A stretch of DNA of 64,000 bases from Leucoraja erinacea (GCF_028641065.1 NC_073393.1:16306001-16370000); one strand, 5' to 3'; counted from the first letter of the stretch, positions 21,182 to 25,919 are shown. Notes: a model not told the origin generated them from the sequence alone. A program made the numbers and translations.

Positions 21182-23584
21182 TTAATGATCAAGTGAGAAA
21201 GCAAGTCGGTTTTGCAGAAGAAGCAGAGCAGGGGCACAGAAAATGGTGAGGAAAATATGTTGTTTTACCAACACATTACATCCTGCGAACTATATCAACT
21301 CTTTCAGGCGTACCTTCATAGGCGAGGATATACAATATAAATGGTAGTACCTTATGTAAGAACTTTACCAAAAGCGTAAATCAACATTTAGAGTATTCGC
21401 AGCAGTTCTGGATTCAACATTGGACGAATGTTGTGATTGTCCCGTCATGGTTGTCCTTAGAGGGGGGTGGGGAGGGGGGGGGGGAGGGGGGGGGGGGGGG
21501 GGGGGGGGATAACCTCACATTTATCCGCATTAAACTTCATCTGCCATACATCTACCCACTCCCCACAACCTGTCCAAGTCACATTGCATTCTCATAGCAT
21601 CCTCCTCATAGTTCACACTGCCACGCAGCTTTGTGTCATCTGCAAATTTGCTCGTGTTACTTTGAATCCCTTCATCCAAGTCATTGATGTATATTGTAAA
21701 TGGCTGTGGTACCAGCACCAAGCCTTGCGGTACCCCACTAGTCACTGCCTGCCATTCTGAAAGGGACCCGTTAATCCCTACTCTAAGTTTCCTGTCTGCC
21801 ATCCACTTCTCTATCCATGTCAGCACTCTACCCCCAATACCATGTGCCCTAATTTTGCCCACTAATCTCCAATGTGAGATCTTATCAAATGCTTTCTGAA
21901 AGTCCAGGTACACTACATCCACTGGCTCTCCCTTGTCCATTTTCCTACTTATATCTTCAAAAAATTCCAGAAGATTAGTTAAGCATGATTTCCTCTTGTA
22001 AATCCATGCTCACTCGGACTGATCCTGTTATCGATATGTCCGGCTACCTCATCTTTTATATTTGACTCCAGCATCTTCCCCACCACCGATGTCAGGCTAA
22101 CTGGTCTATAATTCCCCGTTTTCTCTCTCCCGCCTATCTTGAAAAGTGGGATAACATTTGCTAACCTCCAATCCACAGGAACTGATCCTGAGTCTATAGA
22201 ACATTGTAAAATTATCACCAATGTGTCCACGATTTCTAGAGCCACTTCCGTAAGTACCCTGGGATGCCAACCATCAGGCCCTGGGGATTCACAGACATTA
22301 TAATAGGCAACTCGTAGTCGATAAGGACCTAACGCTGGTAAATTGAATTGGAGTAGATGGAGAAATAGCTCGGATGGACTTGGAGGACCGGAAGGCTGTT
22401 CCTGTGCTGTGCAACTCTGAGACTCCAAGTAGCAATGTGTTCAGACCGTGTTTATGATAAGAAACGTTTCCAAGTGAATGTTCTTGAGACATATATTTCC
22501 TTGTCTTCTGCTATTGTAATGTGAATAGGTGGTAGGATTTGTGTTTTACTCTGGTAATATTTCGACACTAATTTTGTGACGAAGGTTAATTCCCGGGCTG
22601 GCGGGACAGTCATATGTTGAAAGAATGGAGTGGCTGGGCTTGTATACACTTAAATTTAGAAGGATGTGAGTGGATCTTATTGAAACATAGAAGACTATTA
22701 AGGGATTGGACATGTTAGAGGGAGGAAACCTGTCCCGATGTTGGGGGAGTCCAGTACCAGGGGCCACATTTTAAGAATAAGGCGTAGGCCATTTAGAACG
22801 GAGATGAGGAAAATCTTTTTCACCCAGAGTTGTGAATCTGTGGAATTCTCTGCCTCAGAAGACAGTGGAGGCCGATTTTCTGGATGCTTTCAAGCGACAG
22901 TTAGATGCAGCTATTAAAGATAGCGGAGTCAAGGGATATGGGGAGATGGCAGGTTGTGTATGATCAGCCATGATCACAGCGAATGGCGGTGCTAGCTCGA
23001 AGGGCCGAATGGCCTACTCCTGCACCTATTGTCTACTGTCTACTGACATTGCTTTATCATAATCTCCCAATACAATAACAGATGTTTACCTACCTCTTTA
23101 AAATCCAACATACGGTAACTAAAAACGTTAGCATTTATTGAGAGAGGATTGGAATGTTTAAAAAAAAAAGCAGGGATGTAATGCTTCATAAGGCAATGGT
23201 CAGACAGCGTTGGAGTATTGTAGATACGTAACCAGTGTTGACGAGAAGAGCGAAGATGGTCAAACATTGTGTGAATTGAGAAACGCAGCGTGGAGCTTCA
23301 ACCTTTCTATTACACGCAGAGATTTGATACAATAATAATACATATTTATTAAACATAATATCGACAAAAGTATAAAAATATATCTTCACAGTGAATGGGT
23401 TTTACCGCATGTTATATTTGATATATACTACATTATGTTTCACCCCTCAATTATTTTCGGTTACCATTCCACCCTTATGTTCATCATAATATACACACAA
23501 CGTATTAAAGGACATGGTGAATCGGTATTCCCACCTATTATATTCCATAATAAATACCTCCTTCTCCAATTATTTTTCGCTTAC

Positions 23585-23905
23585 CATATACTATTAGACG
23601 TGATCCGGTTGAATTTCTTGGAACCAATCCTTTACGCGTCACCGAACACAGATACACTCCAGAATCTTGGATCGTTGCATTCTTTAACTCAAAGTACCCG
23701 CTTGCTCGATCACTCACGCCAAAACGTTTCCTGCCGTCGGTACTTGTAAGTTGGTATTCACTCTCGCCCTGTTTCCACCATTTGACTCTTACCCGAGATT
23801 GGTCTTGAGAAATGGGGAATATGCAGTAGAATTTGGTGTTCCCTCCTTTGTGTAAAATCACTTCTTTAGGCATTTGCTGTACGTTGTACGAAATCTGTTC
23901 CCCGC
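23585..23905 (-). CDS. Ig-superfamily receptor gene 2, V-set (VJ-type) domain exon
   Basis: Same splice sites and length (321 nt) as 6888-7208. GEQISYNVQQMPKEVILHKGGNTKFYC...DSGVYLCSVTRKGLVPRNSTGSRLIVY. Confidence 0.93.
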
Positions 23906-24370
23906 CTGTTAGGAAACACAGTCAAGGAAAGGTAATTCAGTTGACGGCGGCATACGGACGATAGACCTTACAATTAGTTTATAAATAAGCACATGGAATA
24001 ATGAACAAAGCTGTACCTATGTAAATATTCCCACCGACGATCAGCAAGTTAAATATTATTCCGATTTCCATTCCGGCCAACAGCTACAACTAATTTGTCC
24101 ACAGAAAGCTGCTTTGGCAACTGTTAAGTGAGGGCGTGGTTTATATCCTATGAAGTATGATTCACATCCTGTAATAGGGGTTGCAAGTATCATTTGATCC
24201 TTTGGATTCGCTAATGTCTTCTAGAATCAAATCGGCCGCAGATAGCAGAGTGGTGAAAATTATAATTAAAAGGGTATTCTTCTTATTACATCCTATCAGG
24301 GCGTGGTTTACATTATATGAAGGATGATTTATATCTTGTAACTGAGGGTTGCAAGAATCATTTGATCCGT

Positions 24371-24461
24371 TGGGGAATATGCAGTAGGTATTGTTCACCC
24401 CCTTTGGATAAAACCACTTCTTCGGGCAGTTGCATTACGTTGAACGAAATCTGTTCAACAA
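24371..24461 (-). pseudogene. Truncated, frameshifted 5' remnant of an older paralogous V exon
   Basis: Reads VEQISFNVMQLPEEVVLSKGG/..YCIFP versus GEQISYNVQPLPKEVILHKGGNTKFYCIFP. Its flank (24462-24900, 25160-25560) aligns loosely with gene 1 intron 7210-7640 and 8690-9100. Confidence 0.85.
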
Positions 24462-25919
24462 CTCTTGCAAAACACTGTCAAGAAAAAGCAATGCTGTTAA
24501 AAAAAAACCGGCGTTTAGATGGTAGGTTAAAACATACAGTCTCGAGGACGAATTGCATTTAGCTCTACCAAGTTGAAAGCTAGCCAGAACTTTGTTTACA
24601 AATGAAGGCAGGTGGAAAATTGAACAACGCTTTACCCAGGAGAATGTTCCCAACGACAGGAGAAACATTACACTGGCTAGTGTTCTGATCAATATATTCA
24701 ACTAAGTAGTCTGCAGAAATTCGCGTTTGCAACTGTTAAGTAATGACGTGTTGTATGGACATTGTACGAATGTTGATTCAAATCCGATAACTGAAAGTCC
24801 CATGGATAAAACGTATGCTAATGTCTATTACGTTCAGATCAGCCGCGGAAATTACACTGGAAGAAATTCTAATTTAGTTTTTAATTTTCTTACTATTGTC
24901 TTTACAACTTTGAAACTTTATATTTTTGGGGGGGTAATCGGAACGTGTGTTTGATGGTTCAGCATCAATGAGAAGGAGCACTTTTACGTTGAAGCAATAA
25001 ATGTGTGGAACATTGCAGGAAAAACCCCCACAAAATACGGAATGGTCGTTGTGCATGTACACTTTTAAGGGATCAGCTTCTAATAAGTACTATCGCATGA
25101 TAAAAAATCCTTGTATTGAACTACTTAAGTATCTATTCACATACGTGTAACGGATATATAAGAATAACATCTATTGAGGACATATTTCCTAATATGTGAA
25201 CATAGATAAATAATTTCATCAGCTTGGGATAAAATATTACATTCTCGTAGCTTGATCAGTCTCGAGTAATTTCCATTTTATTGGTTTTGGTTATTTGGTC
25301 ATTTGATATATTTCTATGACTTTAATTTGTAATTAATACGCATGCCGATTAAGAGTTATTTGTTTCCTTGTTTATAAAAGATGGCCGATGAACGGGATCT
25401 CGTGAGCAATCCGTGTATGCCACAGTGAGAATAAAACCAGCATGTTGCCCGTTATTGTCCAAAAATGCATCAGCAATAAAGTTTTATAGTAAACTATTCG
25501 ACGCAGACCGCTTACTTTGTCATTCAGATGTTGAAGCTGATCTGCAGGGATAGTTGATATTTATTAATCTATGCATTGTTCAACTTTTTTTTAATGAATT
25601 GTAAATATACTCCCATCAATATATTACGGTGACAAGAGAGCAGGAGATCATGCGACCATGTGTGGTAGTTAATATTTCCCAAGACACAATTTTGAGGAAA
25701 TAAAGAAAGCATTCAGATTTTTGAAATCTAAAATGGAAACAAAATGACCCAAATATACATCATGTCAAGTCGCATCTAACTTGGCCTATTCCACAGCCAA
25801 CGGTGAAAAATTGTGAGTGCCAAATTTCCTTGATTATTGGTGCTTTCAGCATCTCTTCCATAGATTTGCCCTAAGTACCGTCTTTATCTTTCATTCACCT
25901 TTCCTGCTGCACCCAATGG

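Follow-up and report, generated by a model that had tools for sequence, protein, structure and literature searches.

A predicted promoter-leader-V gene head nested among older V-exon remnants in a VJ-C1 receptor gene of Leucoraja erinacea

A 64,000-nucleotide stretch of Leucoraja erinacea DNA (GCF_028641065.1 NC_073393.1:16306001-16370000), here called the window, carries two minus-strand genes, each with V-set and C1-set exons (Pfam). In one of these, gene 2, the intact V exon lies in a younger block that is set among collinear older remnants related to gene 1, and insertion with deletion of target sequence is the simplest reading of this arrangement. The original prediction was of a cassette of about 0.9 kb, consisting of a V exon plus flanks, pasted into an older V exon. 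The size holds and the content does not. Because the supposed 5' flank contains the leader exon (24017-24071), with a 5' untranslated region (UTR) and, by position, a promoter upstream of it, the inserted unit is a predicted gene head (promoter-leader-V, ~0.9 kb), and the remnant upstream a predicted dead gene head.

We compared 23000-25700 with gene 1, the reference paralogue, by low-stringency BLAST and by alignments controlled with 500 shuffles. Along the plus strand, a gene 1-like block is followed by an old V 3' intron flank, a second 3' flank, the intact V exon, an intron, the leader and an upstream region reaching to 24297; then come a 76-bp repeat, 91 nt of a frameshifted V exon, its intron, a decayed leader, an upstream region reaching to 24892 and a far flank (Table 1). 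The V 3' intron flank is thus present twice, as had been predicted. The outer, diverged copy (23227-23475) aligns over 23227-23441 with gene 1's 6669-6881 at a score of 104, compared to a shuffle mean of 25 and maximum of 43 (z=19.4, 0/500); the original prediction was to fall if this alignment lacked significance. Its distal part (23227-23329), of which gene 2 holds no further copy, matches gene 1 by itself as well (z=7.8, 0/500). The vestigial donor described in this copy is there at 23464, with GT retained and the +5 position altered. The second copy (23476-23584) matches gene 1's 6782-6887 (z=16.9) and leads into the intact V exon at 23585-23905, again in agreement with the prediction. No match was found between the old flank and gene 1's farther intron at 5840-6660 (396/500 shuffles were as good), and no copy of gene 1's 6290-6668 lies near gene 2.

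On the other side of the intact exon, the segment at 24371-24461 is indeed the 5' third of a diverged, frameshifted V exon, with its own AG acceptor, an old flank and a net shift of 2 nt. It is 79-80% identical to both intact V exons (tblastn E=9e-7). The old leader beyond it has decayed: it lacks an ATG, contains a 7-nt gap and retains a donor at 24635. Neither 24890-25040 nor 25550-25900 gave a significant match to gene 1. At the upstream edge of the cassette, the 76-bp repeat is most similar to the cassette copy (64/75 identical, versus 59/76 to gene 1 and 34/49 to the old copy); Tandem Repeats Finder, run over 23000-25700, reported two 20-bp arrays only. The region between leader and repeat (24072-24297) probably serves as a promoter, judging from its position, and contains words that we take to be ETS- and RUNX-like motifs.

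Table 1. Coordinates of the two genes and of the pieces of the nested arrangement, in window positions
Feature	Position	Strand	Description
Gene 1 (reference paralogue)	633..7416	-	Leader 7362-7416, V 6888-7208, C1 3127-3438, transmembrane (TM) 633-738
Gene 1-like block	15838..23222		Near-identical to gene 1's 1-5766: TM, C1, introns, shared repeats
Gene 2 TM exon (predicted)	16470..16575	-	Hydrophobic stretch, in-frame splice; counterpart of gene 1's 633-738
Gene 2 C1-set exon	19059..19370	-	GT-AG, phase 1-1
Junction 1	23222..23223		Gene 1-like intron meets old-lineage intron; ~0.9 kb of gene 1's 5767-6668 absent
Old-lineage V 3' intron flank	23227..23475	-	Includes vestigial donor 23464 and ~10 bases that are filler or the end of the exon
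Cassette's own V 3' intron flank, intact donor	23476..23584	-	84/102 identical to gene 1
Gene 2 intact V(J)-type exon	23585..23905	-	321 nt; Pfam V-set E=1.5e-7
Gene 2 leader exon	24017..24071	-	18 codons plus 1 base, GT donor; in frame with V
Cassette 5' UTR and presumed promoter	24072..24297	-	80-86% identical to gene 1's 7417-7620
Second copy (76 bp) of 24131-24205	24298..24373	-	At the cassette's upstream edge
Junction 4	24371..24373		76-bp repeat to old V exon, 3-bp overlap TGG
Old frameshifted V exon, 5' 91 nt	24371..24461	-	AG acceptor, net 2-nt frameshift
Old leader-V intron, decayed leader, old promoter region	24462..24892	-	264/402 identical to gene 1
Old-lineage far-upstream flank	25036..25552	-	Collinear with gene 1's 8579-9092; 330/493 identical, E=9e-21

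Identity to gene 1 falls into tiers of about 67%, 82%, 94% and 97%. The four outer pieces (72/112, 79/106, 264/402 and 330/493 identical) are homogeneous by chi-square (p=0.33, with one aligner), and the outer upstream and downstream sequences do not differ (594/895 versus 151/218; Fisher p=0.47). The inner non-coding and leader pieces are more similar to gene 1 (84/102 and 305/370), and the difference between inner and outer sequence is large (389/472, or 82%, versus 745/1113, or ~67%; p=2e-10). In three-way site patterns the cassette sides with gene 1 in all segments, by 89 sites versus 28 and 24 in the non-coding and leader sequence. The remnants themselves are collinear, complementary, non-overlapping and equally diverged from gene 1. 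To the left of 23222, 5374 of 5542 aligned bases (97.0%) are identical to gene 1, and this block ends within a repeat that is presumably a truncated CR1-like element.

Four out-of-register junctions are packed within 1.2 kb, and we looked for each of them in Logan contigs covering 23050-25650 at 80% likeness, from three DNA-type runs (organisms A, B and C, the run of A possibly being the assembly's own source sample), scoring bridging by a 31-letter rule. Organism A contigs cover 23050-23596 with 0 differences and 23874-25650 with 3 differences and 1 gap. Those of organism B cover 23193-23596 (7 differences), 24238-24393 in two versions, and the adjoining 24364-24620. A single organism C contig covers 23183-23825, with 29/642 letters differing and 7 gap letters, 6 of them an in-frame loss in V. 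Junction 1 (23222) is bridged in A and C, with B, at 30 letters, one short of the rule; junction 2 (23470) in all three; junction 3 (24297) in A and B; and junction 4 (24371), among the contigs listed, in A only. Loose ends listed at 23222, 23567 and 24285 are gene 1 sequence, none of the loose ends listed points to an intact old V exon, and the depth of the old 3' flank is flat and fits one contig in each run. All four junctions are bridged in the same organism, with no difference at any of them, and some are bridged in two related organisms; the arrangement is therefore neither an assembly artefact nor recent: it predates the split of organisms A, B and C, which are ~1-4.5% apart in the contigs listed. 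Two further observations concern the V exon in these runs. The loss in organism C is a 6-bp in-frame deletion at 23785, and run X1 holds, at 23687-23769, another V-like contig beside the gene 2 and gene 1-like ones (6 differences, depth 17.5), which is either an allele or a third close copy.

The V exons of the two genes encode domains that are 88% identical (dS 0.077, dN 0.058, the synonymous and nonsynonymous divergences). Only 5 synonymous differences are seen at 68 sites, compared to the 19% expected from the flanks (p=0.006), and the dS of 0.077 contrasts with d=0.20 in the cassette flanks. In the C block, the difference between paralogues (3%) is about equal to that among organisms. Because of this synonymous deficit in V, and because the C block is as close between paralogues as between organisms, the data point to a probable later homogenisation of both with gene 1. 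The 97% block stops exactly at junction 1, a junction that organism C shares. Tracts closer between paralogues than their flanks are what ectopic gene conversion leaves, and both the V exon and the C block qualify; this applies to the later layer only. Conversion also replaces sequence in register, without duplicating the flanks, and the cassette is out of register at each end, where duplicates remain.

The original prediction spoke of exon shuffling of the ligand-binding domain, and this label finds little support. The C1-TM half of gene 2 is 97% identical to that of gene 1, and V and C trees agree. Two of three hallmarks fail: the module is not bounded by introns, since it starts upstream of the leader and its target was cut inside the V exon, and no new domain pairing resulted. 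The third, symmetric phase, is present (V exon of 321 nt, phase 1-1).

We lean, with confidence a little above even, towards a single insertion into one old gene followed by homogenisation with gene 1. An old paralogue of the gene 1 family would have been in place, and a paralogue of the gene 1 lineage would have donated the block at 23476-24373, made up of leader, V exon and likely promoter. Break repair or template switching would then, in a single event, have copied this head of ~0.9 kb into the old V exon, at the cost of ~230 of that exon's 321 nt and with duplication of both flanks. The 76-bp repeat may have arisen in that event or arrived with the donor. Afterwards the V exon and the entire C1-TM half would have been homogenised with gene 1, through gene conversion or unequal crossover. 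In a variant, covered by the same level of confidence, a replication fork switched old-new-old-new and so made junction 1 as well. Junctions 2-4 are presumably the product of one event. With cassette flanks at d=0.20 and the 76-bp repeat ~15% diverged, versus 1-4.5% between organisms, the event is probably old. Fork stalling and template switching/microhomology-mediated break-induced replication (FoSTeS/MMBIR) would leave several neighbouring junctions with microhomology or short templated inserts; here one junction has a 3-bp overlap and there is a 76-bp local repeat, the other junctions being hard to read after so long a decay. The earlier claim that the cassette replaced most of an older V exon is borne out as regards a younger block within collinear older remnants; for its other component, the origin of both remnants from one and the same gene, we rely on inference from the sequence.

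Several results weigh against this history. No intact old-lineage gene was found among the contigs listed for the three runs at 80% likeness, and the 30-residue old V remnant, searched against 52 family proteins, gave a best match of 55% identity over 29 residues and no old gene. Junction 1 requires a separate deletion or an extra switch. Neither microhomology nor a target duplication is clear at junctions 1-3, where shared words reach 4-5 bp at best. Pairwise alignment of the proximal 3' flank places the three copies at almost the same distance from one another (0.82, 0.76, 0.75), and sites shared by cassette and old copy outnumber those shared by gene 1 and old copy by 11 to 4 (p=0.12). The pooled counts, 41 versus 29 (p=0.19), lean the same way, as a tandem duplication would.

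That slight, non-significant excess is one of the points in favour of two local tandem duplications in gene 2 (~120 bp of 3' flank and ~560 bp from promoter into V), followed by conversion by the gene 1 lineage with no import of a block. Such duplications would yield just the observed order of pieces, A-B-B-C-D..G-D..G-H, and conversion by gene 1, which is evident in V and C, would simply end at these junctions. We regard this as an unlikely history. It needs at least four events: two duplications, one on either side of a single exon, full-length conversion of copies by then ~20% apart, and the 76-bp repeat. That repeat, moreover, sides with the cassette rather than with the old copy, and in no segment are cassette and old copy grouped together. 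Deletions between tandem genes are common, and a three-gene tandem array could also have been collapsed by two independent deletions, so that the remnants are of different paralogues. The family occurs in multi-gene clusters (several proteins per species on one longest contig), the cassette is a natural gene head, and equal divergence also fits two equally old paralogues. Such a collapse would, however, have had to place collinear breakpoints within ~240 bp by chance, which two independent deletions did in 1.6-4.6% of simulated cases (genes of 5-15 kb; uniform breakpoints assumed), and other remains of family exons were not found elsewhere in the window. We consider the collapse doubtful, and equally doubtful the roles it would assign: an old gene upstream, broken within its V exon, a middle gene giving promoter-leader-V, and a downstream old gene giving intron and C.

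Germline V replacement of the RAG type, or capture by a transposon, is very improbable. The V exon belongs to the VJ type, which PMC10751288, in the part that deals with it, connects with the origins of antigen receptors, and an exact CACAGTG heptamer stands at 23387 in the old 3' flank and also in the V-C intron of gene 1. This lone heptamer is ~80 bp from the nearest junction, and no heptamer-spacer-nonamer arrangement (spacers of 12 or 23; up to 1 and 2 mismatches) was found on either strand of 23150-25000. The cassette has lost the heptamer through a 6-bp deletion, and no nonamer accompanies it. As for a transposon, no target-site duplication was seen (the longest word shared across the ends is 4-5 bp; terminal inverted repeats were not searched for). 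Collapsed or mis-joined paralogues in the assembly are scarcely credible as the source of the arrangement. An N gap and a 97-98.5% duplicate do lie nearby, and among the contigs listed no single one from organism A spans the V exon. Against this, copies 15-35% diverged are too distant for mis-joining, the junctions are bridged in independent organisms, and the organism C contig runs from junction 1 into the V exon. Two further candidates were discarded: retroposition, since the leader-V intron is retained, and a cassette made up of the V exon only, since the leader exon and presumed promoter lie inside it.

Hybrid KIR genes and the MDIR receptors of skates offer parallels. A closer one is SIGLEC11/SIGLEC16 of primates, in which, according to the relevant part of PMC5701461, a block with upstream sequence and a V-set exon is exchanged by gene conversion. 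There too, adjacent immunoglobulin-superfamily immune-receptor paralogues show identity tiers and repeated homogenisation per lineage (PMC5701461, same part). The SIGLEC block as described there replaces its homologue, with no leftover mentioned, whereas here the flanks are duplicated, the block lies out of register and a dead head remains upstream; moreover, the C-TM half has been homogenised too, and no paired-receptor contrast is seen. Chimeric genes formed after duplication are attributed in the portion of PMC2926785 on this topic to non-allelic homologous recombination, illegitimate recombination or FoSTeS/MMBIR, with FoSTeS an option for complex germline joins. Gene 2 resembles the chimeras treated there in its local donor, duplicate genes, multiple junctions and a short overlap at one of them, and differs in that no new domain architecture arose and the junctions are too old to assign a pathway. 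In sharks, transfer of V modules has been proposed between the linked loci NAR-TCR and IgNAR/IgW in the passages of PMC12227049 on these loci, which also describe conversion among UrIg2 exons, and PMC10751288 discusses non-rearranging VJ-C1 genes in a section of its text. The non-rearranging UrIg and UrIg2, as those passages portray them, share with gene 2 a cartilaginous-fish host, a VJ in a single exon with C1 behind it, duplication and conversion of exons, and the proposed movement of a V, there between linked loci. On the same partial account UrIg2 has many C1 domains, whereas gene 2 has one C1 and a TM, and the move here would be from one paralogue to another within a single family. The match of a stingray homologue to UrIg2 is confined to a C domain (E=5e-15).

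Spliced in silico, gene 2 joins leader, V, C1 and TM through intact GT-AG sites into a single frame of 264 codons, and the gene is predicted to be expressed. Exon sizes in gene 1 are identical, and the predicted product of gene 2 is a near twin of that of gene 1: the C1 domain, which in gene 1 scores E=3e-11 (Pfam), is 96% identical in amino acids (dS 0.049). Gene 1 has a GC donor after its leader (7360-7361, minus strand), whereas gene 2 and the old remnant carry GT; gene 1 may be poorly spliced or use a GC-AG intron. The last five residues of the gene 2 leader are the same as in stingray homologue leaders. A tblastn search with 20 homologues found no tail exon for gene 2, and a candidate acceptor at 15418 leads to a short peptide without a tyrosine motif. 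The TM acceptor adjoins an N gap (16585-16802) inside the C-TM intron, ~40 bases longer than the corresponding stretch of gene 1. A 1.5-kb insertion at 19670-21182 in the V-C intron, missing from gene 1, carries an open frame of 446 codons that we take to resemble the reverse transcriptase of a long interspersed element. Either this insertion postdates the homogenisation of the C block, or gene 1 has lost it.

The closest relatives of both genes are cartilaginous-fish proteins automatically named SIRP-like or tapasin-related-like, and gene 2 is a predicted batoid member of the VJ-C1-TM family of cartilaginous fishes annotated 'SIRP-like': leader, V-set, C1-set and TM lie in one frame, and the gene is nested in the family tree. 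A HMMER search with the V domain returned 182 relatives; of the 65 proteins at E<=1e-30 in the profile search, all the named ones are from sharks, rays or chimaera. The best V match, at 63% identity, is to a stingray protein; family proteins such as XP_059849417.1 of Hypanus sabinus show this level of V identity, and both V and C fall in a batoid clade. For the trees we chose 52 named proteins by hand, added the two window genes and retained rows according to alignment length, which left 46 for V and 50 for C. Both trees make genes 1 and 2 sisters within one batoid clade (support 100/99 and 98/89 for V and C). Some homologues, their names being automatic, differ from gene 2, for which none was found, in having tail exons with tyrosine motifs, and some family members lack C1. 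The family extends across sharks, rays and chimaera, with several members of a species on one shared longest contig, which suggests one conserved cluster per genome. The ESM Atlas returned only generic V-set clusters for the V domain, and a single-sequence AlphaFold model of it (mean predicted local distance difference test, pLDDT, 41.5) was unusable and was not used. In the open-access main texts searched, no description of the family or locus was found. One stingray relative, XP_072926702.1, has an N-terminal extension resembling an out-of-frame reading of another V exon, a hint of a possible second V copy upstream of that gene model; either a similar scar or the predictor's fusion of an adjacent gene with it might be the cause. 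Elsewhere in the window, 53225-54495 holds a ~635-bp tandem duplicate of 98.7% identity, which either is recent or reflects overlap in the assembly.

The arrangement looks like ordinary turnover within the cluster, a known kind of event with an unusually legible scar, rather than a new receptor design. It offers a clear and datable view of gene renewal in a tandem immune-receptor cluster: a new promoter and V take over an older locus, and conversion then blurs the history. V and C trees hide such events, which are visible only in the non-coding scars. It is conceivable, if rather improbable, that promoter-leader-V heads move as units between genes of the non-rearranging ray VJ-C1 cluster, as a recurring germline swap of ligand specificity and expression. 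If so, the locus would preserve, at the level of its junctions, a fossil of such V transfer as has been suggested between antigen-receptor loci of sharks, and the new V would first have been joined to an old-lineage C, before conversion erased the contrast. The non-rearranging VJ-C1-TM cluster found throughout the cartilaginous fishes may merit more attention than the rearrangement of gene 2 itself.

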